The position numbers and the translations under genes were made by a program. 64,000 bases of DNA, from IMG/VR virus record IMGVR_UViG_3300029288_000066, positions 64,001 to 128,000 of that record; one strand, given 5' to 3'. Positions 19,989 through 62,166 of this stretch are shown piece by piece. The stretch comes from a virus. Lineage: Duplodnaviria > Caudoviricetes. A model generated the notes under the pieces. The model was given only the letters and a program-made list of their open reading frames with translations, was not told where the DNA came from and did no database searches. Every line of letters begins with the position of its first letter. The stretch's first letter is position 1.

Positions 19989-20100
19989 ATCTAGTCAGAT
20001 TTTATATAAATAACTAAACATTTTCTAAATTTAGAAAAATTTTTTTCTTTTTTCAATCATTAAATTTTGTTGTTTTGTTTTTTTTTTATATATTTACAAA

Positions 20101-20340
20101 TAGTTAACGTTCGTTTGTATTTTTATTGGCATATCAAATGACATGGGTTCAAATCCCATATACTCCACTAAGACATTAATTACAAAAGGGGTATGAAGGC
20201 ATTAGAATTTGATAGAGTGGGTAAAGAGAGAGTGTTAGCAAAAGCTTTAAACGGCGAAAATTTTATAAAAGAAGCTATGGCTCTAGCCAAAATGAGTTAC
20301 AGCCAAGCACCTGTTAACACCCTTGCGGCGTAAATAGGTA
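20101..20340 (+). ncRNA. ssrA: Circularly permuted (two-piece) tmRNA; outer ends approximate
   Basis: The T arm (ATGGG-TTCAAAT-CCCAT) and 3' acceptor strand ATACTCC-A (20143-20167) precede the 5' strand GGGGTAT (20188-20194), giving a G3.U70 pair. TATCAAA/TTTGATA helix; tag ORF 20253-20333 GENFIKEAMALAKMSYSQAPVNTLAA*. Confidence 0.88.
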
Positions 20341-20341
20341 T

Positions 20342-20375
20342 AAAAGCCCTCTCTCCTTTAGGTTTGAGGGTTTTT
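20342..20375. terminator. Bidirectional terminator between tmRNA and the convergent HNH gene
   Basis: AAAAGCCCTC...GAGGGTTTTT. Confidence 0.65.
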
Positions 20376-21132
20376 ACATCTTATTCCTTTTGGTTATACA
20401 GTTATCAAAAGCATCTAAAGGTTGAAAATTTGTGTAATGATTTAGTCTATATATTTCTTCTTCTTCTGTTTTTGCAGATGATATTGGAATTATATGGTCT
20501 AGTTGCCAGAATTTATTCTTTATCATTTTTTCATTTTTAAATCTTCCAACGTTATTCCAACACATCCAAGGCTCAAATTTGCTTTCCAAATACAATTTAA
20601 ACTCCTCAAAAGAACATCCAAGTATTTGTTCAGTCTTTGTGTTTTTTTTAAAACCACTTGTTCTTAACGAGCTACTTATTAAGCTTCTAATGTTGCCGCT
20701 CAATTTATATAGCGGGTCTTCATTTCTCTTCCGCTTGTTAAAACTATTAAGGTAAGATGGGTTCTTTATTTTCCACAACTTATCATATTCTTTTTTATAT
20801 TCTGGATGAGTTATTTTAAACTTTATTGTTCTTTGTTTTATTTTATCTCTGTTCTTTTCTCTTGATGCTTTTGCTTTCTTTTTAGAACATAATATGCAAA
20901 AACAATGAAGCCCATCTTTCTTAGATTTGCTTTTCCAAAATTCTTCAATTGGGCTTTCTACTTTACAACAGGGGCATATTTTAAATCCACGTTTTGCTTT
21001 TTTTCTAATTAAACCACCTTCTCCTTTACATTTCTTACATACAGATGCATATCCGTCTTTTTTAGTTCTATTTCTATAAAACCATTTAACATCTTTTTCA
21101 ACACAGCAACATTTACAAAATTTTGTTTCCAT
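20374..21132 (-). CDS. HNH endonuclease with two N-terminal Zn-ribbon repeats
   Basis: CKCC..DGYASVCKKC, CPCC..DGLHCFCILC; ILGCS..WQLDHIIPIS..NHYTNFQPL. Confidence 0.8.
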   Translation of the reverse strand: METKFCKCCCVEKDVKWFYRNRTKKDGYASVCKKCKGEGGLIRKKAKRGFKICPCCKVESPIEEFWKSKSKKDGLHCFCILCSKKKAKASREKNRDKIKQRTIKFKITHPEYKKEYDKLWKIKNPSYLNSFNKRKRNEDPLYKLSGNIRSLISSSLRTSGFKKNTKTEQILGCSFEEFKLYLESKFEPWMCWNNVGRFKNEKMIKNKFWQLDHIIPISSAKTEEEEIYRLNHYTNFQPLDAFDNCITKRNKM

Positions 21133-31485: not shown

Positions 31486-32424
31486 TTAAATTATCCACTT
31501 AGCAATACGATTATCAAGAGAAAAAAGACAGTCCCTTTCTTCAACTTCTTCTTCAAGGATGTACTTTTTAAAATTCATGTAATACAAATTCCCTGGGCAC
31601 CCGAACAATGTTTTGTATGCTTGGAAAATTGTTTCATTTACATAAAAGAAAATCGTTTTTACATATATTCCTTTCGAGATTTTATTCATTTTAAAAATGG
31701 TTGGTTTAACCTCCATCCAAGTTTCATTGCTCATACGGCTCAATTGTATTTTTTGAACCACTTCAAGAATTTGCAGCATTCTTTCTCTTGCAGCAGATTC
31801 TTCATCTCCCAGATTCATTACAAGTTCATCATGAGAAACAAAAATAATATTATCTGGAGGAAGAATCTTTTCCAAATCTTCAACCAATTTCAAGATGTGA
31901 TAATGCTGAATATGTTGAAATCTCTTTGGGTTTAAGTTTCCAAAGACAACCTGCCTGAAACTTTTGCTGAATGAGACTACTGGATGAATTTTTAAATCAG
32001 CACATAATTCTATCCAACTTCTTTTCATTTCATTGTTCTGGTCAAAAATCTTCATAGACTGAAAATTTGCACTTGAGAAATCCAAAGAAAGCATAAAATT
32101 ACCTTCATACATTTTCAGGTGGTCTTTCGTATAGAACTTGGTCTGAGAATAATCAAATTCTTGGCACTTTTTATAAGCTTCTGACGTGGCTAAATAGTTT
32201 TTGATGGTTTCATATACATAGCCCATTTTGTAATGTCCTACGTTGTTATATCCATTTTCTTTCAACCAATCTTCAAATTCAGAATAATTATTTACAGTCA
32301 AAACAATATCCTTAAACTCAAAAGACTTTGAAAGTGTGTTGATATAGTATTCAAAATGTTCTTCAACAGGAATGTTGAGCTTAAAAAGCTTAGCGAATTC
32401 TGCAATCTCTTTAATCTTTTTCAT
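31486..32424 (-). CDS. Hypothetical protein with possible polymerase-palm-like motifs
   Basis: LSLDFSSANF and FVSHDELV; coupled to the upstream nucleotidyltransferase. Confidence 0.6.
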   Translation of the reverse strand: MKKIKEIAEFAKLFKLNIPVEEHFEYYINTLSKSFEFKDIVLTVNNYSEFEDWLKENGYNNVGHYKMGYVYETIKNYLATSEAYKKCQEFDYSQTKFYTKDHLKMYEGNFMLSLDFSSANFQSMKIFDQNNEMKRSWIELCADLKIHPVVSFSKSFRQVVFGNLNPKRFQHIQHYHILKLVEDLEKILPPDNIIFVSHDELVMNLGDEESAARERMLQILEVVQKIQLSRMSNETWMEVKPTIFKMNKISKGIYVKTIFFYVNETIFQAYKTLFGCPGNLYYMNFKKYILEEEVEERDCLFSLDNRIAKWII

Positions 32425-33592
32425 AGAATTCTTTTCTTATTTTATTTGTTAAATTTTCAATAAATTTATGGTCGACTTTGTTTGGAAGATTTGATTTTTC
32501 AAACAATTCATCCATTTTCGCAATTTTTTCTTCTGCGGTTTTAATCAAAGTGTCCAAATCAACTTTTCCGTGCCTGATATCAAGCAATTCTTTTGCATTT
32601 GGTCTTCTTACAACAATTCCTTTGCCTTCGGCAATTTCGATAGACATATCAATTAGCCTCATACAATGAAGCATGTTTTTCCCATCAATTTTTTGTCCAT
32701 GACTCTCAACATCAACCCATCTCTGCATATTTCTTGTTTTCAGCCAATTTTGATATTTGCTATAATCTTTGCAGTGCTGGGTATAAGCATCTTTGTTATA
32801 AGAGAAAACGCAAACTGGTTTTTCTCCCTTCGGAATAGAACTTAATCTTAAATTGTTGGAAATCCCTGCGTTTTCTGAGCCGCCTTCTTTTTCGAGACCC
32901 TTATATCCTAACCCAACGGTTTTGCTTTGTTCCTTAAGAACTTTTTTGTTGTGTTCTTTATCTACTTCTTCCATACACTTTGCAAAACAAAGATGTGCTT
33001 TCGAATCATAGAAAAGTGCGAACATATTCGTTGCGTTTGATACGTTTACGACGCCACAAAATTTTTGTTCATAATTATAATCCTTTAAAAACCCCTTCAA
33101 TTTTCTTGTTCCATATCCATCAATCACAAAGCAAAAGTCAATAGGGTTTTTTCTGGTTACCTTATTCTTTTCCCAGTTCATCATTTTATCCTGGCCTTTA
33201 GCTTTTTTTATTTGAGCTCTGGAATAGCCCCCAAAAGAATCAGCACATTTTTTTGTGATAAACTTATCCATTTCATTCAAAACCAAATCAAAAATTGGGT
33301 GTTTTGACACAACACAATCTTTGGGACTGTTCAAAAGCTCCAATAGTGTAGGATTTGCAGTTTCAATAAGCTGCATAAATTCGCTTAATTCAAATCCAAC
33401 AAAATCTTTATTAACGTGAACTTGTGGAATAAACCCGTACAAATAATCAGGAAGAATGTAAACAAATTTTTTGTCCACATCACTTTCTGGAGTATTCGTT
33501 CCATATGCTTGAGAACCGACAATTGTTTCAAAAACAATCCAATTGTTAGCTTTCAAAAATTCATAAAACTTTTCCGAACTTACATTTACCAT
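32411..33592 (-). CDS. Pol-beta-superfamily nucleotidyltransferase (YcgL-like)
   Basis: VGSQAYGTNTPESDVD, ANPTLLELL, DGKNMLHCMRL, LLDIRHG. Confidence 0.85.
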   Translation of the reverse strand: MVNVSSEKFYEFLKANNWIVFETIVGSQAYGTNTPESDVDKKFVYILPDYLYGFIPQVHVNKDFVGFELSEFMQLIETANPTLLELLNSPKDCVVSKHPIFDLVLNEMDKFITKKCADSFGGYSRAQIKKAKGQDKMMNWEKNKVTRKNPIDFCFVIDGYGTRKLKGFLKDYNYEQKFCGVVNVSNATNMFALFYDSKAHLCFAKCMEEVDKEHNKKVLKEQSKTVGLGYKGLEKEGGSENAGISNNLRLSSIPKGEKPVCVFSYNKDAYTQHCKDYSKYQNWLKTRNMQRWVDVESHGQKIDGKNMLHCMRLIDMSIEIAEGKGIVVRRPNAKELLDIRHGKVDLDTLIKTAEEKIAKMDELFEKSNLPNKVDHKFIENLTNKIRKEFYEKD

Positions 33593-34662
33593 TATTTCCT
33601 TGGTTTAATATTTTCTGAATCTTTAATCTTTTCAAAAATCTCTTTTTCTTTATCAGATAAGTTTTGTGGAGTAAAAACACGGACATCAATATATAAATCT
33701 CCTCTATAATTTGTTCCCGCTTTATACATTCCTTTTCCCTCAACCCTTAATCTTGTTCCACTTTGAACTCCTGGTGTAATGACAACCTTTATTGTTCCCC
33801 CCTCGATTGTCTTAACTTCCAAATCTTTTCCAAATATTGCTTCACATATACTAAGGTGACACGTTGTATATAATTCAGAATCTTGACGTGTTACTGAATC
33901 ATTAAAAGCTTCTTCAACAATAACAAACAAGTTTCCGTTTGGTCCTCCATTCTTAGATACATTTCCAGCACCAATAAACTGTAATGTGTCACCGTTTTTC
34001 ACACTTCTTGGTATTTGCAAATCGACTTCTTCGTCTTTAAATGTTGTTTTTTTACCACCACAAGAACTACATGTTGCTTGAATTATTTTTCCGCTTCCAC
34101 CGCAATTTTGACAAGGTTCTTGCGACATAAAACTTCCGACCATGGTGTTTTTTACTCTTTTTATCCATCCAGAACCTTGACAGTCTGGACATGGATGAAC
34201 AGAAGAGTCGTTTGCTGCACCAGTACCTTTACAAACTTCACAAAGGACTTCCCTTTTATATTTTACCTTTTTTGTTATTCCAGAGAAAACATCTTCCAAA
34301 TCCAGAGTAATCTTCATTCTTAAATCTGTTCCTCTGTTATGTTGTTGATTTGCTTGTTGAAATGGGTTTCTTCCGCCAAAGAACTGTTCGAATATATCAT
34401 CTACATTAAAACCCCCGCCAAAACCCCCAAATCCACCTGGCATTCCCTGAAAATCTCCACCATCATATCTCTTTCTTTTTTCTTCGTCACCAATTACAGA
34501 ATAAGCCTCTGCAATTTCTTTAAACCTCTCCTCAGACTGTGCATTTCCTGGGTTTTTGTCAGGATGATGCTTTAACGCCAACTTACGATAAGCTTTTTTT
34601 ATCTCATCCAATGACGCCGCCTTGGGAACTCCCAAAATTTCATAATAGTCTTTTCTAGCCAT
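33592..34662 (-). CDS. dnaJ: Chaperone DnaJ
   Basis: J domain with HPD, G/F region, four CxxCxGxG-type repeats. Confidence 0.97.
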
Positions 34663-36637: not shown

Positions 36638-37201
36638 TTATAGCTTACTCAATTCTTTAAGTATTCGAGCTGTATTTATGGCATCATCGACTCCTCTGTG
36701 ACAAGTCCCTTCGAATTCAACTCCCATCTTTTTCAAAGCATTTGAAACGCTCGTAGATTGTTTCAGCCCATACTTAAAGGCGTACCATTCTCCTAAATTA
36801 AAATGTGTTTTTCCAAATGGATATTTAACTTTTTTAAGAGCGCACTCTTTTTCAAACGCAACCCTGTCATAATCTCCCCAGCTGAACCACATTCTTTTGT
36901 CTGCCTGAAACTCATCAATCAAAATCTTGCATGCTTTTTTAAACGAAACCCCATTTTTTTCAACAAACTCAGGAGTTAATGTAGTTAATTTTGTACAGAA
37001 CTCGCTTATTTCTGAAAGTGCTGGCTTAACAATTATGCTTCTTGATTGTATCATTTCTTTCGTAAAATAATCCACACAGGCAACCCCAATTTCAATAATT
37101 TCTTTGTGCTGGCCGATTGGCGGATTCCCCATCCAACAACACGCCTCAATATCCACAACCAATGCGAAACTATTCTTTTTTTCTCTCTTTATTTTCATCA
37201 A
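36638..37201 (-). CDS. DEDDh exonuclease (ERI-1/KapD-like)
   Basis: VVDIEACC, EIIEIG, FCTKLT, SWGDYD, HRGVDDA. Confidence 0.88.
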   Translation of the reverse strand: MMKIKREKKNSFALVVDIEACCWMGNPPIGQHKEIIEIGVACVDYFTKEMIQSRSIIVKPALSEISEFCTKLTTLTPEFVEKNGVSFKKACKILIDEFQADKRMWFSWGDYDRVAFEKECALKKVKYPFGKTHFNLGEWYAFKYGLKQSTSVSNALKKMGVEFEGTCHRGVDDAINTARILKELSKL

Positions 37202-37754
37202 TTTTTATGTATTTAGGAGGAACCGCATCTGTCAAATAAACATCATTATCTGTTTTGTAGAATTTATATCCCTCATTATTCATTTGTTTTGCTTCAATTA
37301 TTAGCACTGCGGCCTCAACTCCCTTTTGGTGTCTTGACCCTGTGTTTTTTGCCTTATCCATATTTTCTTCTGAATACAAATGAACGTGATGTCTATTCAT
37401 CTTTTTCAACCCTTCTTTCATAATAGAAGGTAAAAATCTTGGCGCTGTTCCGTGATACAACTTAAACGGAGGAACTATCGGCTTCAATTGTAAATCAACA
37501 TCAATTGAGTGTCCTTGATTTGCCATTATGAGAGTTTCATCATCATTAAATTTGAATCTTTGTTTATCGGAGGTTTTTACCACTTCTTTCAAATCTTCAA
37601 AAGTAAATTCAATTTTGTCTTGAGACTTCTCTATCAACAAATCAACATCAGCCCATCCATTCTTGTCCAGTGTAATCCCAATGGCACCTGGATTGTGCCG
37701 TAAGACATATGATAAATGCTTACTAATCTTTGTTATCTTTTCTTTATAATTCAT
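37170..37754 (-). CDS. kptA: RNA 2'-phosphotransferase (Tpt1/KptA)
   Basis: SKHLSYVLRH, DKQRF, ANQGHS, LYHGT, RHHVHL. Confidence 0.95.
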   Translation of the reverse strand: MNYKEKITKISKHLSYVLRHNPGAIGITLDKNGWADVDLLIEKSQDKIEFTFEDLKEVVKTSDKQRFKFNDDETLIMANQGHSIDVDLQLKPIVPPFKLYHGTAPRFLPSIMKEGLKKMNRHHVHLYSEENMDKAKNTGSRHQKGVEAAVLIIEAKQMNNEGYKFYKTDNDVYLTDAVPPKYIKIDENKERKKE

Positions 37755-39352: not shown

Positions 39353-40246
39353 TTAAAATATTAAACTCCCGTGGTCATCCCACCTCGAATATAATTTACA
39401 ATTTTCTCTCAGAATGAGATATTTATATGTGTCCTTTACTTCTTTTGACATACAGTCTTCATCAAGAACAACTCCCATCCCATTATAGCTATATTTGACC
39501 GCTCCAAATGGAAGAATTTCTAACGACTGTCCCTGAGATTTTATAAAGCTACCAATGTTTTCAAACCTATCTTCATTCATTCTGTTTTCTTCTATCCAAG
39601 TGTCAATATCCTTATGTTCATTTGTTTTGGAAGAATACAACTTTCTGAAAGTAACCTGGTCGGCGCCAAGGTCTGCTGCACGTCTCAACATCATAGCTGG
39701 GGCATCTTTATCATAAACATTTGTCATATTAAGCGACAAACGGAGGTTGAAATTGTTTTCTTTTATTCTTTTACATACATCTTCAATTTCAAAAAACAAT
39801 TCTGGACTTATTCCACAAATTTTAGCGTTGTTTGTATTGTCAAATATATCTGACAAGGATAATGAAATGGTAGTAACTCCAATCTTTTCTTTTAAAAAAA
39901 GAAGATTTTCGTTTGTTAGCATAACTCCAGATGTTTGAATCTCAACCCAAAGATATGGACTTGGCAATTCTTTGTTTATATTAGAAAAAAACGTGAGAAA
40001 CCTTCTGTTTTGCAACGCCTCTCCAGTTCCTGTTAACATTACAGTGTTACAATTGTTATCTCGTGAAAATTTTAACCTTTTATAAAATTGATTTCTGTAT
40101 TCATCAACAACTTCATCCCTATCTTCTATATTTCCCCATGTACGCAAACATGGATAATCGTTTTCGTGAAGCCTTGACACACAAAACTTGCATTTGTTAA
40201 CACAACCCTTTGTTGGCACGCATACTGATAAACTTTGTACATTCAT
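39353..40246 (-). CDS. Radical SAM protein
   Basis: CxxxCxxC (CVNKCKFC), LTGTGE. Confidence 0.88.
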   Translation of the reverse strand: MNVQSLSVCVPTKGCVNKCKFCVSRLHENDYPCLRTWGNIEDRDEVVDEYRNQFYKRLKFSRDNNCNTVMLTGTGEALQNRRFLTFFSNINKELPSPYLWVEIQTSGVMLTNENLLFLKEKIGVTTISLSLSDIFDNTNNAKICGISPELFFEIEDVCKRIKENNFNLRLSLNMTNVYDKDAPAMMLRRAADLGADQVTFRKLYSSKTNEHKDIDTWIEENRMNEDRFENIGSFIKSQGQSLEILPFGAVKYSYNGMGVVLDEDCMSKEVKDTYKYLILRENCKLYSRWDDHGSLIF

Positions 40247-40803: not shown

Positions 40804-41772
40804 TTAATATCCAAGAATATGAGCAAAAATCAAAGGAGCAACAATAGTTGCATCGCTTTCTATCCAATGTCTTGGAGTGTTTATTGATAGCTTTTGCCAT
40901 GTGATTTTTTCAGAAACTTGACAATTAGAAAATCCGCCAAAACTAGTGTGCCCATCTGTAATTTGGCAATAATAACTCCATTCTTGAACATTAATTTTTA
41001 AATCTTGTATTAATAATGGCACTAAAGTTTGACACGAATCGCCACTTATGCCTCCCCCAATCTGAAAAAATCCAATTCCTTGTCCATCACAATTTTTTTG
41101 ATACCAGTCGATAGTTGAAATCATATATTCCATTCCAGTTTTAAGAATTTCAATATTAATGTCTTTTCTAATGCATGCAGCCGCAAACATATTGCCAATT
41201 GTTGAATCTTCCCATCCAGCAACAACAATAGGCAAGTTTTTTTCAGCAGCAGCCACCACCCAAGAATTCTTTGGGTCAATCTGATAATATTGTGCAAGTT
41301 TTCCGCTAAGTATAAGCTCATAAAAGTATTCATGTGGGAACCTTCTTATCCCATTTTTTTTATCGTCTTTCCAAAGTTCCAACATGTGCGATTCAATTCT
41401 TCTAAAAGCTTCTTCTTCTGGAATACAAGTGTCTGATACACGGTTCATTTGTCTTTCAAGCAATGCCTTATCATCTTCTGGTGACAAATCTCTCCAATTT
41501 GGCACTCTCTCGTAAAAAATATGAGCCACCAAGTTAAAAACGTCTTCTTCGAGATTGGCACCAGTGCTGGAAATTGCATGCACCTTGTCCTGTCTAATCA
41601 TTTCTGCCAGCGTTTTTCCTATCTCAGCTGTACTCATTGCTCCAGCAAGAGAAATCATCATTTTTCCACCTTTTTTAAGATGCTCTTCATACCCTTTAGC
41701 TGCATCCACCAAAGCTGCAGCGTTAAAATGCAGAAAATTATCCTGCAAGAATTTTTTTACTTCTCCGTTCAT
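40804..41772 (-). CDS. Deoxyhypusine synthase-like protein
   Basis: LHFNAA, AGAMSTAE, TGANLEED, GWEDSTIG, IGGGISGD, EKITWQKL (catalytic Lys region), ESDATIVAP. Confidence 0.92.
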   Translation of the reverse strand: MNGEVKKFLQDNFLHFNAAALVDAAKGYEEHLKKGGKMMISLAGAMSTAEIGKTLAEMIRQDKVHAISSTGANLEEDVFNLVAHIFYERVPNWRDLSPEDDKALLERQMNRVSDTCIPEEEAFRRIESHMLELWKDDKKNGIRRFPHEYFYELILSGKLAQYYQIDPKNSWVVAAAEKNLPIVVAGWEDSTIGNMFAAACIRKDINIEILKTGMEYMISTIDWYQKNCDGQGIGFFQIGGGISGDSCQTLVPLLIQDLKINVQEWSYYCQITDGHTSFGGFSNCQVSEKITWQKLSINTPRHWIESDATIVAPLIFAHILGY

Positions 41773-51103: not shown

Positions 51104-51165
51104 ATACTTATATTTTAATTTTTAATAAATATAATGTTAAAAATTAAAAATATAAATACAATTTG

Positions 51166-51238
51166 TAGAAATGATTGGATTTGAACCAACGACCTTTTCC
51201 ATGTCACGGAAACGCTCTGCCAACTGAGCTACACTTCT
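51166..51238 (-). tRNA. tRNA-Val(GAC)
   Basis: Cloverleaf; anticodon arm TTTCC-GTGACAT-GGAAA; T loop TTCAAAT. Confidence 0.9.
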
Positions 51239-51242
51239 ATAG

Positions 51243-51343
51243 TAAGAGTCCGAAGTCTTTTTGCCCTTCCTCTTATCCATTCCGCCACAGAATGGCTTAA
51301 GCCTCCAGGGGATGACCGCTGACTGAAGGACTCTCTAGACCCC
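51243..51343 (-). ncRNA. Unidentified ~100-nt rod-like structured RNA
   Basis: Nested stems AGAGTCC/GGACTCT, AGTC/GACT and CCATTC/GAATGG; GC-rich, non-coding, between tRNAs. Confidence 0.45.
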
Positions 51344-51425
51344 GTATATCAGCTTTTACATTTTAATTTAAGTGACGGTTTAAACTTATAAATGTCACTT
51401 ATAAATATGTAAAAGTTTTGGGTTG

Positions 51426-51500
51426 TGGAAACACTTGGATTCAAACCAAGGACCCTCTGGTTGTAGGCCAGATGCTCTAAATCAGCTGAGCTATGCTTCC
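51426..51500 (-). tRNA. tRNA-Val(TAC), atypical C33
   Basis: Cloverleaf; TCTGG-CCTACAA-CCAGA. Confidence 0.85.
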
Positions 51501-51508
51501 GAAATTAG

Positions 51509-51581
51509 TGGGAGTGGAGGGAATCGAACCCCCTAAAAATTGGATGTAACCCAACTGCCCCAGCCGTTAGACGCCACTCCC
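51509..51581 (-). tRNA. tRNA-Val(TAC), divergent D arm
   Basis: GGGAGTG/CACTCCC acceptor stem; GTTGG-GTTACAT-CCAAT; T loop TTCGATT. Confidence 0.8.
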
Positions 51582-51589
51582 GTAAAAAA

Positions 51590-51944
51590 AATAAGATGAG
51601 CATAGCCAGAGTTCTGTTTTATTTTAGCATTTGTCTGGCAAAATGACTCGTCAAACTGCCGTTAGCCTCTACCAGGTCATTATAGAATTGAAGGTTCCCA
51701 TTCTAGACCCATTTGAGTTGCACACCGCCATTTGGCTATTTATTTAAAATAAACGTTGCACCAGTAATAACGATTGTAATTCGTGGCTTTCGGGTTACTG
51801 ATTTATTTGGCGCACTCTAACCCATTTTTCTATTTTGATGCCAATCCTAACAACTTTAACATTACAATCTTCTGATTCCTTCTTAATGATGTGCTCTGAG
51901 CTTCCTCATGTATTAATTACATGCGCTAAATCCTCTTTCTTATT
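51590..51944 (-). ncRNA. rnpB: RNase P RNA (ends approximate)
   Basis: Conserved regions in order: GAGGAAGCTCAGAGC (CR I), GTGCAAC, AGACAAATG (CR IV), ACAGAACTCTGGCTA (CR V, pairs with CR I to form P4); terminal ATAAGA/TCTTAT P1. Confidence 0.85.
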
Positions 51945-52814
51945 TTTATTAATTTTCCATCGTTTTTTTTGACAGTTATCCGAACAAAATCTTTTATGAT
52001 TATATTCTGTGTTAAATTTTTTCCCACAAAACCCACAAGTTCTATTTAAATAACTTTCTTTTACTATTGTTTCCCATTTGTGATTATAACATACAACTGG
52101 ACTTATTCCGATAAAATTTAAAAACTCAAAAACCTTTTTATTTGGTATTATAATTCTATTGGTACTCTCTTTTAAATAGGCATCAAACTCATAAAAATTC
52201 AATTTTTCAATTAAAACTTTATTATCTTCTTTGGAAAATGAATCAGTGCAAAAAACAGCCCCAACCTGATTATCTAAAGTCCCATCCCCTAAATACCAAT
52301 GCAGAACAACGGTTCTGTTAAGTTCTATATCTTTGGGAACTATTTTTTTTCCATTTGGATACCACTTTTCTCTTAATTTAGTAAAACACTTATTTGCTCT
52401 TGATGTTATAGTAAAATAATCATTCCCGTTGCTATATCCACTATGCCCTTTTCCGCTGTACTGTGACAACTCAAATCCAAGTTGTTCTGCTAAAAAATCA
52501 ATGTATTCTTTAAAAACACAAGAATGAGTAAAAGATGAATTTTGGTTATTGATTATTCTTTTGCAATGTCCATCAGAAAGTAAAGACCCATTTATAACAT
52601 CTAAGTCATTTTTTGTCAAAACTATTTCTTCTAAATTCTTTTTTGACTCATCTGAACACCTTAAAGAACAAAATCTGTTTGCCTTATGTTTCCTTTTTAG
52701 AAATTCAGCTCCACAAATTTCACATCTTCCTTTAATATAATATTCATAACCAGTACCGCTTTTACGTTTTTTTTTGTAAGAACCATCTTTTGTTATTTCG
52801 AAATCTCCTATCAT
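51906..52814 (-). CDS. LAGLIDADG homing endonuclease with flanking Zn ribbons
   Basis: INGSLLSDG and LHWYLGDG motifs, FCTDSF; 3' end overlaps the 5' end of RNase P RNA. Confidence 0.85.
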   Translation of the reverse strand: MIGDFEITKDGSYKKKRKSGTGYEYYIKGRCEICGAEFLKRKHKANRFCSLRCSDESKKNLEEIVLTKNDLDVINGSLLSDGHCKRIINNQNSSFTHSCVFKEYIDFLAEQLGFELSQYSGKGHSGYSNGNDYFTITSRANKCFTKLREKWYPNGKKIVPKDIELNRTVVLHWYLGDGTLDNQVGAVFCTDSFSKEDNKVLIEKLNFYEFDAYLKESTNRIIIPNKKVFEFLNFIGISPVVCYNHKWETIVKESYLNRTCGFCGKKFNTEYNHKRFCSDNCQKKRWKINKNKKEDLAHVINT

Positions 52815-52889
52815 ATATTTATTCTTTTATATAAATATATACAAAAAAGGAGAAAAAACAAAATTATTAAAAATAATGTTTCAAACAAC

Positions 52890-53132
52890 TTATTTTCTCA
52901 TCAGAATCCCACCCCTCCAGGTCAAACCTTTTCCCCAGTAATACTTTCCATCCTTTGACATTGCCCAAACATTCATGGCCTCATCCATGTATACTGGAAG
53001 ATTTTCAAATTGCTCCATGGCAATTTTTGTTTTTGTTCTTCTTCTAAAAATTCTGTTGGCAAATCTTTTATCTTTTTTTTCAGACCCCCCACCAATGCCA
53101 AAAATGGGAGTTTTTCTTCTTGAGTTGCTCAT
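52890..53132 (-). CDS. Small basic protein within the tRNA region, 80 aa
   Basis: MSNSRRKTPIFG..SEKKDKRFANRIFRRRTK..WAMSKDGKYYW. Confidence 0.7.
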   Translation of the reverse strand: MSNSRRKTPIFGIGGGSEKKDKRFANRIFRRRTKTKIAMEQFENLPVYMDEAMNVWAMSKDGKYYWGKGLTWRGGILMRK

Positions 53133-53229
53133 GTTTTCTAAATTTAAAAATTTAAAAGACCGCAGAGCTCCTTCCATTAAAATAACTTTTCATGATAATT
53201 TCTTTTTTATAAATATTTTTAAAAAACTG

Positions 53230-53301
53230 TTGTTCTGCAGGGACTCGAACCCCGACTATCTTCATCCAGAGTGAAGCGTGTTGCCATTACACTACAGAAC
53301 A
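53230..53301 (-). tRNA. tRNA-Gln(CTG)
   Basis: U1-A72 pair; CTTCA-CTCTGGA-TGAAG. Confidence 0.9.
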
Positions 53302-53306
53302 ATTTG

Positions 53307-53386
53307 TACCCTCCGCAGGACTCGAACCTGCAATTTCAGCTCCAATTACGATTACAAAGTTCGTAGCTTTGCTCGGCTAGGAAGGC
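53307..53386 (-). tRNA. Atypical tRNA-Arg(ACG)-like RNA lacking a D arm, with long variable region
   Basis: GCCTTCC/GGAGGGT acceptor stem, 8-nt connector, CAAAG-CTACGAA-CTTTG, ~23-nt variable region, GCAGG-TTCGAGT-CCTGC. Confidence 0.7.
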
Positions 53387-53391
53387 ATTTG

Positions 53392-53465
53392 TGACCCTTG
53401 AGGGATTCAAACCCCCAACCCCGAAATCCGTAGTTTCGTGCTCTATTCAGTTGAGCTAAAAGGCC
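53392..53465 (-). tRNA. tRNA-Arg(ACG)
   Basis: Cloverleaf; CGAAA-CTACGGA-TTTCG. Confidence 0.9.
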
Positions 53466-53470
53466 GTTTG

Positions 53471-53543
53471 TGGAACTGGGTGTCTTCGACACACCGACCC
53501 ATTGCTGTTCAGACAATTGCTCTTCCAACTGAGCTACAGTTTC
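53471..53543 (-). tRNA. tRNA-Phe(GAA), atypical T loop
   Basis: ATTGT-CTGAACA-GCAAT; T loop GTCGAAG; one acceptor-stem mismatch. Confidence 0.8.
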
Positions 53544-53551
53544 TTGTTTTG

Positions 53552-53625
53552 TGGAACCTCCCAGATTTGAACTGGGGCAAACCTGGATTTTCGGTCCAGT
53601 GCTCTACCAACTGAGCTAAGGTTCC
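53552..53625 (-). tRNA. tRNA-Phe(GAA), atypical C33
   Basis: CTGGA-CCGAAAA-TCCAG. Confidence 0.88.
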
Positions 53626-53724
53626 ATTAATTCTCAAATCTGAGCGGCTGGGTAGGTAGCATTTTGCATACACCACTCAAACTTGAGAATAATTTTTAAT
53701 CACAACATGTCAAAGACCTTGATG

Positions 53725-53800
53725 TTGCCTCACTAGGATTCGAACCTAGACATGCTTTTTCCGTCAAAGGGAAACGTGCGGCCAATTACACTATAAGGCA
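53725..53800 (-). tRNA. tRNA-Gln(TTG)
   Basis: U1-A72 pair; TTTCC-CTTTGAC-GGAAA; 8-nt variable loop. Confidence 0.85.
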
Positions 53801-53805
53801 ATTTG

Positions 53806-53878
53806 TGGAGATAGCAGAACTTGAATCTGCGACTTTCACGTCTTCAGCGTGACACTCTACCATCTGAGTTACATCTCC
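53806..53878 (-). tRNA. tRNA-Phe(GAA)
   Basis: TCACG-CTGAAGA-CGTGA. Confidence 0.9.
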
Positions 53879-53899
53879 ATTATTTAAAGAACTTTCTTG

Positions 53900-53973
53900 C
53901 TATTCTGCCTGGGCTCGAACCAGGACTCTTTTGAACCAAAATCAAACGTGTTTGCCAATTACACCACAGAACA
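53900..53973 (-). tRNA. tRNA-Gln(TTG)
   Basis: TTTGA-TTTTGGT-TCAAA; discriminator G. Confidence 0.9.
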
Positions 53974-53989
53974 ATATTTTAAAGAACAT

Positions 53990-54023
53990 AAAAAAACCCC
54001 AGGGTTTTTGACCTTGGGGTTTT
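53990..54023 (-). terminator. Attenuator terminator in front of the tRNA array
   Basis: Minus strand ACCCCAAGGT-CAAAA-ACCCTGGGGT followed by a T run, ending 16 nt before the first tRNA. Confidence 0.85.
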
Positions 54024-54043: not shown

Positions 54044-54139
54044 TTAACGACATAACACAGCCAAGGTCTTTAGTGCTTGTTGCACAAAAAACACCACCTG
54101 AAAAAAGCGCTGACTTGATATGTTTGTTAAATTTTTCAT
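54044..54139 (-). CDS. Leader (attenuator) peptide MKNLTNISSQRFFQVVFFVQQALKTLAVLCR
   Basis: ATG with A-rich upstream region; codons 10-21 encode only Gln/Arg/Phe/Val; contains antiterminator strand GACCTTGG (54061-54068). Confidence 0.85.
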   Translation of the reverse strand: MKNLTNISSQRFFQVVFFVQQALKTLAVLCR

Positions 54140-60735: not shown

Positions 60736-62166
60736 TTAACGATTTCTTTTCATTTTTAATTCTCTTTGAGCCTCTCTTTCCTGAGTTTTCTTCTTTTCCA
60801 ATCTTCTTTCTTTAAAGGTAGGTCCAGAGTTTTTGTCCTTTATGTTTAATAAAGGCTTTAGTCTATCAATAATGGTAGCAGTCGGCTCAATAGCCGCTTC
60901 AATCATCTTTGAGCTTTTATACGAATTCGGAGCCTCATCTATAGTGCCACGCACAACCGAAGTAGAATATATTCCTTCCATTTGTTTTCTAAAAGTATCC
61001 ATGTCAAGAGTCTCTTTTGCTTTTGTTCTTGACATGCATCTTCCAGCCCCATGAGGTGAAGAAAAATTCCACTCAACATTTGATTTGCCTTCGCAAACCA
61101 ATATTCCATCTCTCATATTGAATGGGATAATCATTCTCTCTCCAACATAAGAACGGATAGCACCTTTACGAATAATAAAATCCCTAAAGTCAATAAAATT
61201 ATGGATACTTTCTATTTTATCAACTGGGATAATTCCTCCTAATATATTACAAACAATATTAAGCATCATTTCTCTGTTGAACTGTGCGTATTTTTGGGCG
61301 ACAAGCATATCAATAAGATATTCAAAAGCAGCGTTTCCTTCCAAAAATTCCATTCCTTTAACATCAAAATCGAAATCAAGGCCTAATTCTTTTTTTGCCT
61401 CAGAAATTAAAGAAGAAATCTTTGATTTATCTTCAGTGTTTTTTGTGATTTCTTCAATTTTGGCTCTTAAAATGTCGTTTCTGTTGTGGTCAAGTCCCTT
61501 CTTTGCCTTGTCCTGGTGATATTCACAAATCATTTTTCCAAAATTTCTTGACCCAGAGTGAATAGTTACCCAAACATCCCCACAACTATCTGATTTTGAG
61601 ACTTCTATAAAGTGATTGCCCCCACCGAGAGTTCCAATTGACAACTCAGCACGATTTGGCTTCATTCCAATCTTCTTACATAAAGCTCCAAAATCTTTAT
61701 AATCGTATTTACTGTAAGAATAGTTAGTTCCAAATTTTACATTATAAGCCCTAATAAAGGCCAGCATTTCATTATTAAGCACTTCCCAATGAAAGTATTT
61801 ATCAAATGAAAATTTATCATTAAAATTGAATTTAAATTCTTTTTCGTGAGTATTAATTCCCATAGGAACGTCTCTTCTTAATCTATCATCGAATTCTTTT
61901 AAAGTAATGGTTAATTTGCTACCAATGTTTGCTGATAGCATACCGCAGCCTATATCCACAGAGACGACATTAGGAATTATTTTAATTCCCATAGGCATTG
62001 TAAATCCAACACAACTTCCCTTCCCTGCGTGTCCGTCTGGCATTACAACAACTCTATTATCGAATGCAACATGACTAATCATCCTATAAACTTGATTAAT
62101 CATTTCCTGTTCAAACTCATCAATTGTTAAATATGCCGTTGTAAATTTCCCCTTAAGCTCTATCAT
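60736..62166 (-). CDS. rtcB: RtcB RNA ligase with basic C-terminal tail
   Basis: MPDGHAG, VDIGCG, GTLGGGNHFIE, HSGSR, HNFID, HGAGR, DEAPNSYK. Confidence 0.95.
   Translation of the reverse strand: MIELKGKFTTAYLTIDEFEQEMINQVYRMISHVAFDNRVVVMPDGHAGKGSCVGFTMPMGIKIIPNVVSVDIGCGMLSANIGSKLTITLKEFDDRLRRDVPMGINTHEKEFKFNFNDKFSFDKYFHWEVLNNEMLAFIRAYNVKFGTNYSYSKYDYKDFGALCKKIGMKPNRAELSIGTLGGGNHFIEVSKSDSCGDVWVTIHSGSRNFGKMICEYHQDKAKKGLDHNRNDILRAKIEEITKNTEDKSKISSLISEAKKELGLDFDFDVKGMEFLEGNAAFEYLIDMLVAQKYAQFNREMMLNIVCNILGGIIPVDKIESIHNFIDFRDFIIRKGAIRSYVGERMIIPFNMRDGILVCEGKSNVEWNFSSPHGAGRCMSRTKAKETLDMDTFRKQMEGIYSTSVVRGTIDEAPNSYKSSKMIEAAIEPTATIIDRLKPLLNIKDKNSGPTFKERRLEKKKTQEREAQRELKMKRNR

Follow-up and report, generated by a model that had tools for sequence, protein, structure and literature searches.

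The Gln/Phe/Arg/Val tRNA array and its leader

The subject of this analysis is an array of 11 transfer RNA (tRNA) genes at positions 51165-53973, minus strand, of a window of 64,000 nucleotides (nt), namely bases 64001-128000 of the single-contig IMG/VR record IMGVR_UViG_3300029288_000066; coordinates refer to this window unless marked genome. The record (228,886 bp with 33% G+C, listed as linear and with an estimated completeness of 82%) belongs to an uncultured jumbo phage, its viral status being that of the IMG/VR/CheckV entry; a comparison of ten of its large open reading frames (ORFs) with PHROGs recognised proteins of replication only, and none that is structural. tRNA genes were called with ARAGORN and with Rfam/Infernal (RF00005, gathering score 29 bits); the former finds ten genes in the array and the latter eleven, every one above the gathering score (33.7-66.3 bits), which bears out the tRNA genes described in a first-pass annotation of this DNA. 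They stand for four amino acids only, and in order of transcription the array runs Gln(UUG), Phe, Gln(UUG), a hairpin spacer of 98 nt, Phe, Phe, Arg(ACG), an aberrant gene of 81 nt, Gln(CUG), an ORF of 95 residues, a LAGLIDADG gene, Val(UAC), Val(UAC), a structured spacer and Val(GAC) (Table 1).

Table 1. Leader, array and RNA-processing genes of the window, by descending coordinate
Feature	Position	Strand	Details
RtcB RNA ligase	60736-62166	-	PF01139, E 1.1e-58
Leader ORF, 31 codons	54044-54139	-	codons 10-21 QRFFQVVFFVQQ, only Gln, Arg, Phe, Val
Intrinsic terminator, hairpin and U-run	53990-54023	-	-17.0 kcal/mol
tRNA-Gln(UUG)	53899-53973	-	loop UUUUGGU (G37, U38), discriminator G; ARAGORN and Infernal, 58.9 bits
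tRNA-Phe(GAA)	53805-53878	-	loop CUGAAGA (G37); ARAGORN and Infernal, 66.3 bits
tRNA-Gln(UUG)	53724-53800	-	loop CUUUGAC, 8-nt variable loop; ARAGORN and Infernal, 55.5 bits
Spacer, 98 nt, long imperfect hairpin	53626-53723	-	-29 kcal/mol, z -4.5; no Rfam family
tRNA-Phe(GAA)	53551-53625	-	loop CCGAAAA (C33); ARAGORN and Infernal, 64.3 bits
tRNA-Phe(GAA)	53470-53543	-	loop CUGAACA (C37), A2.C71 mismatch, T loop GUCGAAG; 43.5 bits
tRNA-Arg(ACG)	53391-53465	-	loop CUACGGA (G37); ARAGORN and Infernal, 53.9 bits
Aberrant tRNA-like gene, 81 nt	53306-53386	-	33.7 bits
tRNA-Gln(CUG)	53229-53301	-	loop CUCUGGA (G37); ARAGORN and Infernal, 65 bits
ORF inside array, 95 residues	52890-53177	-	no family
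LAGLIDADG homing-endonuclease gene	51906-52814	-	splits array; PF03161, E 6.8e-25
tRNA-Val(UAC)	51509-51581	-	loop GUUACAU (G32/U38), G8 C9 in place of U8; 41 bits, Rfam only, missed by ARAGORN
tRNA-Val(UAC)	51425-51500	-	loop CCUACAA (C33); ARAGORN and Infernal, 61 bits
Spacer, 186 nt, structured	51239-51424	-	z -3.2
tRNA-Val(GAC)	51165-51238	-	loop GUGACAU (G32/U38); ARAGORN and Infernal, 64.1 bits
Tpt1/KptA RNA 2'-phosphotransferase	37170-37754	-	PF01885, E 1.4e-49
RNase T-family exonuclease	36638-37201		Pfam
RlaP nucleotidyltransferase of RNA-repair pathways	32411-33592	-	PF10127, E 9.9e-19

Ten of the 11 genes are well-formed cloverleaves, the exception being the one at 53306-53386, and in nine all 17 pairs of the acceptor, anticodon and T stems are intact. 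A canonical loop of seven nucleotides with U33 and a purine at position 37 is present in seven genes; two of the others have C33, one C37 and one U37. The loops that the first-pass annotation had quoted for the Phe, Gln(TTG) and Val(TAC) copies are all present as listed in Table 1, where loops are read from the structures, and the same applies to C33 in two copies (Phe 53551, Val 51425), to G32/T38 in two Val tRNAs (51509, 51165) and to the lack of an encoded CCA in all 11 genes. Of the two Arg loops that it named, CTACGGA stands (53391), whereas CTACGAA appears only in an alternative fold of the aberrant gene. In the fold given by both ARAGORN and Infernal, 53306-53386 is a Gln(UUG)-like but deviant cloverleaf that lacks G18G19 and has an A31.A39 mismatch, U37 and a variable region of 16 nt; the alternative, a six-pair hairpin, reads Arg(ACG) with the loop CUACGAA and leaves no D arm. 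The acceptor stem resembles that of the genome's Arg(CCU) tRNA, and the sequence is ambiguous between a Gln and an Arg identity. The neighbouring Gln(CUG) gene (53229) has its acceptor 5' strand and D arm in common with Gln(UUG) 53899.

Amino-acid operons of the trp, his, phe and leu type have attenuators in which a short ORF with regulatory codons in a row is followed by a terminator and an alternative pairing that competes with it, and which control biosynthetic enzymes. Sequence and folding point to the same elements ahead of the array, and the upstream attenuator that the first-pass annotation had connected with it is indeed matched to the array's four amino acids. All 12 residues of the leader run QRFFQVVFFVQQ correspond to amino acids of the array (empirical P ~0.001), and its codons CAG, CGC, UUU, GUG and CAA are readable by the array's tRNA species, with Val(GAC) being the only species without a cognate codon in the run. 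The 5' arm of the terminator, CCAAGGUC, is predicted to pair alternatively with GACCUUGG of the leader (-17.4 kcal/mol); an equivalent of region 1 was not identified in the leader. Downstream follow only tRNA genes and the homing endonuclease, and no genes of amino-acid biosynthesis or transport, so that in this case the controlled genes would be tRNAs for the leader's own codons. A matched leader lies upstream of each of the five tRNA arrays of the genome (empirical P 0.001, 0.025, 0.007, 0.011 and 0.001). Two of the leaders begin alike, with MKNLTNIS... at 54044-54139 and MKNKVGNIS... at genome about 194100-194190, a likeness that suggests duplication within one leader family over separate invention of each.

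Within the array, two related structured elements on the minus strand (51239-51350 and 51582-51718) both contain GGGTCTAGA...CCTGG.AGGCT. This element has only two copies in the genome, each just upstream of a Val tRNA, has no Rfam match, and occupies the 3' half of the 51239-51424 spacer. A group I intron around the LAGLIDADG gene and a known RNA family in the spacers were considered and dropped, as neither gave an Rfam match even at E<=1.

Divergence of the same-anticodon copies

The array is one of five modules, each sorted by amino acid, which together with a lone CUA suppressor make up the approximately 57 tRNA genes of the record, all on one strand. Sixteen anticodons are present in two to four copies genome-wide. 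No tRNA-Glu is found in the record by ARAGORN or Infernal, though Glu accounts for 7.7% of the codons; the record being only 82% complete, a further array may be missing. For comparison, other tRNA-rich phages were reached via a shared, oddly built tRNA-Ala (where comparison phages have to be told apart they are labelled G001, which was reached via RtcB, G005, G010 and G011, the record under study being G000). Most of those sampled have one gene per anticodon, G011 being the only one with many duplicates (11 anticodons) and a few others having two or three, and the redundancy seen here is thus unusual even among such phages.

To quantify how unlike the copies are, the tRNAs were cut into arms and 24 same-anticodon pairs from the whole genome were compared with tRNAs for different amino acids. 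The identities were 0.36 versus 0.31 for the acceptor stem, 0.48 versus 0.42 for the D stem, 0.28 versus 0.33 for the anticodon stem, 0.67 versus 0.63 for the loop flanks and 0.55 versus 0.51 for the T stem, and no arm of the same-anticodon copies is significantly more alike than chance. The stems had been described as unrelated between such copies, and at the identity level of tRNAs for different amino acids this description is accurate. In the 24 pairs, 216 stem positions have changed on both sides and are still paired, as opposed to 29 that are broken. Helices that stay intact across compensatory changes indicate selected, long-separate lineages and speak against recent duplication as well as against pseudogenes in decay. 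In this genome, two tRNAs that share the amino acid but not the anticodon resemble each other more closely than same-anticodon copies do. Bacterial multi-copy tRNA operons are likewise tandem and carry several genes per anticodon, but their copies, as sampled for Val(TAC) in 41 Bacteroidota genomes, are identical within a genome over the 41 nt compared, while the copies described here share no more than unrelated tRNAs do.

In the other tRNA-rich phages, same-anticodon acceptor stems are alike (7.2 versus 4.7 of 14, P<0.001), as are the T stems (P 0.003), and anticodon stems are at the random level, a pattern that would be expected if the anticodon stem is that portion of the molecule which is free, or pushed, to change. 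Across 13 of these phages, no tRNA exceeds 76% identity to a member of the array. Searches for relatives of the array itself gave five short single-tRNA matches and no related array by distant BLASTN in a cultured-phage database, no relative via the flanking HD protein, and, via RtcB, two contigs at 52% identity without tRNAs close by, one of which (G001) holds an array of 13 tRNAs elsewhere.

Several loops break rules that are nearly universal in tRNAs. U33 has been described as almost invariant in elongator tRNAs (PMC5041475), whereas C33 occurs here in five of the 57 genes (Phe, Val-UAC, Ala-UGC, Thr-UGU and Gly-UCC). Each of these has a same-anticodon copy with U33, a partnering that is not significant alone, since 65% of the genes have a partner. 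The C33 form of Val(UAC) recurs in G001, with the same loop, and in G005, and C33 is seen again in Glu(UUC) of both G010 and G011; a scan of IMG/VR for Phe tRNAs with C33 gave only three unrelated small contigs. G32 is found in six of 313 phage tRNAs, and five of the six are Val tRNAs spread over four genomes. G32/U38 is thus a shared trait of phage tRNA-Val, and the idea of a local escape mutation does not hold for it. The Val(TAC) loop with G32/T38 was absent from 201 and that with C33 from 101 Bacteroidota genomes, a group to which the host may or may not belong. A control pattern matched 39 of 41 Bacteroidota genomes, with TTTACAC or CTTACAA as the only loops; the single pattern match in the loop search lacked anticodon-stem pairing and was discarded as chance. 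Judged from these searches and from the literature (PMC5041475), elongator tRNAs of cells almost never show C33, G32.U38 or C37. The Phe loop with G37 and the Gln loop CTTTGAC are common among the other phages.

Possible roles of the redundant tRNAs

The first-pass annotation had interpreted the array as a panel of variants resistant to different anticodon nucleases. This nuclease-escape interpretation is partly supported by the sequence, is plausible, and has already been published as a hypothesis for phage tRNAs (PMC10264068, PMC11464382, PMC11555353); new here are the degree of redundancy, the divergence of the whole tRNA body and the recurrent rule-breaking loops. We favour, with a rough probability of 0.45, a wider reading in which the array would be the part for Gln, Phe, Arg and Val of an almost full tRNA supply that the phage encodes as a replacement, made damage-tolerant by unlike bodies and backed by repair, and in which the unlike copies probably keep phage protein synthesis going when host tRNAs are destroyed. 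The module would be transcribed from a promoter upstream of the 31-codon leader, and stalled decoding of the leader's Gln, Arg, Phe and Val codons would favour the alternative pairing and hence read-through past the terminator. The diverse copies would act as a hedge, as a tRNA-cutting nuclease (tRNase) of a host defence that reads one loop or anticodon-stem sequence could not remove all adapters for a codon. The copies themselves may have been assembled from long-separate tRNA lineages and not diversified in place. Cut tRNAs could be repaired by RtcB, Tpt1 and RlaP, and the 3' ends would be finished by the host's CCA-adding enzyme. Judged from domain matches, an RtcB ligase and end-healing and end-filling partners are indeed found in one genome (Table 1), and a repertoire of the RtcB/RlaP type is the RNA-repair set of jumbo phages that has been reviewed (PMC7824862).

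Several results weigh against this reading. The only nuclease for which data on C33 were found, gamma-toxin, is unaffected by C33, whereas a purine at position 32 blocks it (PMC2275089). Diversification of the anticodon arms, as claimed at first, holds for the loop positions 32, 33, 37 and 38, which differ between copies, but the acceptor, D and T stems are unrelated to the same degree and the anticodon arm of this genome is no more diverged than the other arms. In six of the 16 duplicated families (Asn, Tyr, Arg-UCU, Met, three of four Lys and two of three Trp), the copies combine identical loops with different stems. In seven of the 24 pairs, all ten anticodon-stem bases differ, with 2.55 such pairs expected (P ~0.008, uncorrected), but this excess is suggestive only because it was not replicated in the other phages (3 versus 2.66). 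The anticodon arm thus appears to be special only partly. Finally, core positions are aberrant in three of the 11 genes (53306, 53470 and 51509), and these may be non-functional in translation.

That these three low scorers (53306-53386, 53470-53543, 51509-51581) are tRNA-like RNAs or decaying genes outside translation is doubtful, yet it has a fair amount in its favour: they reach 33.7, 43.5 and 41 bits compared with 54-66 for the rest, they lack G18G19, or U8 or T54, or have a pyrimidine at position 37, and further tRNA-like non-coding RNAs as well as a Ro/TROVE protein are encoded in the genome. Against it, their stems are intact but for one mismatch each and they lie in register within the array.

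A variant with stricter control, which we regard as rather unlikely, would turn the arrays into a demand-switched second set: when a group of codons stalls, its leader would switch on an operon of structurally orthogonal tRNAs, and the rule-breakers (C33, G32.U38, a pyrimidine at 37, or a long variable arm on a class I tRNA) would be a class peculiar to phages, competent in elongation and invisible to tRNases that read the loop or stem.

It is unlikely that the copies are harmless redundancy, collected passively from other phages or hosts at different times via the traffic of homing endonucleases, with their diversity reflecting separate origins. Endonuclease-like ORFs do occur in each array, at least one per array and here including LAGLIDADG (51906-52814), each of the two Val(TAC) loop types is the sole Val(TAC) type in other phages, and the closer likeness of same-amino-acid tRNAs with different anticodons is expected if same-anticodon copies are different lineages. 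On the other hand, stems have stayed intact through hundreds of compensatory differences, the single gene per anticodon in most tRNA-rich phages means that redundancy is not the default, and leader codons that cover the array's tRNA species argue for an integrated unit.

Position 37, where A or G governs the action of MiaA- and TrmD-type enzymes, differs between copies, as do discriminators and acceptor pairs (the Gln copies have G73 or A73), and this would fit copies that are each adapted to a particular host's synthetases and modification enzymes, or to one phase of infection, with a wider host range as the benefit. Such a compatibility panel is improbable, given that C33, G32.U38 and C37 occur in no cellular tRNA set sampled (PMC5041475) and so do not look like host mimicry; synthetase genes were not looked for and none turned up. 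The phage-specific loop states and the putatively stall-sensing leaders would equally serve a phage that destroys host tRNAs itself, its own tRNAs being spared by their odd features and its leaders timing expression to the loss of host tRNAs. Virus-driven loss of host tRNA has been described (Yang et al., 2021, as mentioned where PMC10264068 cites it) and counts for this possibility, which we hold to be quite improbable; a phage-encoded tRNase was not identified, no systematic search having been made. Least supported and very improbable is dosage or codon-bias compensation, which the first-pass annotation had also discounted and in which additional copies would simply provide more tRNA for codons that are frequent in the phage or rare in the host: the anticodons matching the preferred codons of this AT-rich genome (CAA, TTT, GTT/GTA) are duplicated, but tRNA copies do not track amino-acid usage (rho 0.12, P 0.62; Trp has three genes at 1.2% of usage, Gln four at 3% and Glu none at 7.7% in the 82%-complete record), and dosage needs no unrelated sequences, cellular duplicates being identical.

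Among known systems, the favoured replacement supply is close to that of phage T5, whose tRNA-Lys escapes the PARIS effector AriB, which cuts in the anticodon stem at 40/41, via changes in the anticodon stem-loop (PMC11464382) and whose tRNA-Tyr counters the effector of retron-Eco7 (PMC11555353); as may be the case here, the host's anticodon is presented on a different stem-loop, and both phages have a large array. In T5 there is one variant per anticodon and resistance was established by experiment, while here there are two to four unrelated and putatively resistant bodies per anticodon, and C33 and G32.U38 go beyond the loop changes of T5. To our knowledge, phage tRNAs that evade tRNA-cutting immunity have been described as one variant per anticodon, in a field that moves fast. 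If the reading is true, a set of unrelated bodies for each anticodon, with their folding maintained by selection, would be a different strategy. Mycobacteriophages of cluster C1, for which mutation of the anticodon loop was proposed as an escape (van den Berg et al., 2023; PMC10264068), also have a large tRNA set with non-cellular loop positions and no fit to codon compensation; that work compared phage tRNAs with those of a known host and with known VapC and MazF sites, while the hallmark here is redundancy within one genome with divergence of the whole molecule. The T4 cluster, with Rnl1/Pnkp repair of PrrC-cut tRNA-Lys, and the RtcB/RlaP kits of jumbo phages likewise join tRNA genes to repair enzymes (PMC7824862), and there, too, genes without CCA need 3' completion by the host; T4 uses Rnl1/Pnkp and has eight single-copy tRNAs, in place of the RtcB/Tpt1/RlaP set found here.

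The genome could serve as a natural library of loop and stem variants against PrrC, RloC, colicins, VapC, AriB, PtuAB and Cas13-type nucleases. Recurrent elongator tRNAs with C33 and G32.U38 bear on how strict the rule of an invariant U33 is, and arrays with codon-matched leaders could make the sensing of tRNA shortage directly testable.

Further tRNA features and gene context

The base following the discriminator is C in 49 of 53 tRNA genes (background 14%; in the window e.g. 51160-51166 and 53302-53306), CAA stands as the trailer in 34 of 53 (background 2.3%), extended to CAAA in 30, and a few tRNA genes outside the window seem to encode CCA. A possible route of maturation is trimming by an RNase T-type enzyme that stops at C74, followed by completion of CCA. 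As the array encodes no CCA and a search of the record for a class-II CCA-adding enzyme gave none, CCA addition probably falls to the host. An attempt to place the host via DnaJ gave a best match of 44%, with matches scattered taxonomically.

Stem-forming variable arms are normally a feature of Leu, Ser and Tyr tRNAs. In this genome, class I tRNAs for Asn, Met, Asp and Trp of 80-91 nt carry such arms (genome 154092-154177, 155101-155188, 174760-174846, 177479-177569 and 192298-192377), and at further loci of other phages (among them L013) they are found on Thr, Val, Gly, Ala, Ile and Glu tRNAs. A partial tRNA-like match with a long variable arm and a CTAAAAA loop lies at the upstream end of the Leu/Cys array (genome 139637-139708, minus strand; 30.5 bits, model positions 7-64). 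The tRNA-Ala(UGC) at genome 175277-175352, with an unusual D arm (TGGGACTGCT..GTGGTC, G8 G9), has 26 matching stretches (L014-L039) on 25 IMG/VR contigs, which measure up to 315 kb; at 85% identity between distant phages it represents a conserved, phage-specific tRNA lineage. The lone tRNA with the anticodon CUA, of the amber suppressor type, lies at genome 196604-196678 on the minus strand, and TAG terminates 16 of 177 long ORFs; a partial reassignment of this stop codon is possible.

At 20078-20424 on the plus strand, ARAGORN calls a permuted transfer-messenger RNA (tmRNA) with a tag of 26 residues; none of the Rfam tmRNA families reaches threshold in the window. Outside the window, a GOLLD RNA (185.9 bits; genome 168325-168729, minus strand) lies near a match to the bacterial small signal recognition particle RNA (47.2 bits; genome 169196-169283, minus strand), corresponding to 925-1329 and 1796-1883 of locus L007. 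Protein-coding neighbours in the window, all on the minus strand, include a deoxyhypusine synthase homologue (40804-41772, E 5e-40), which is translation-related and unexpected in a phage, a radical SAM protein (39353-40246) and a full DnaJ (33592-34662). Elsewhere in the genome are the Ro/TROVE-domain protein (genome 213494-215089), a Cas3-like HD-helicase (198756-201095) and a ClpB-like double AAA+ protein (216155-218212).

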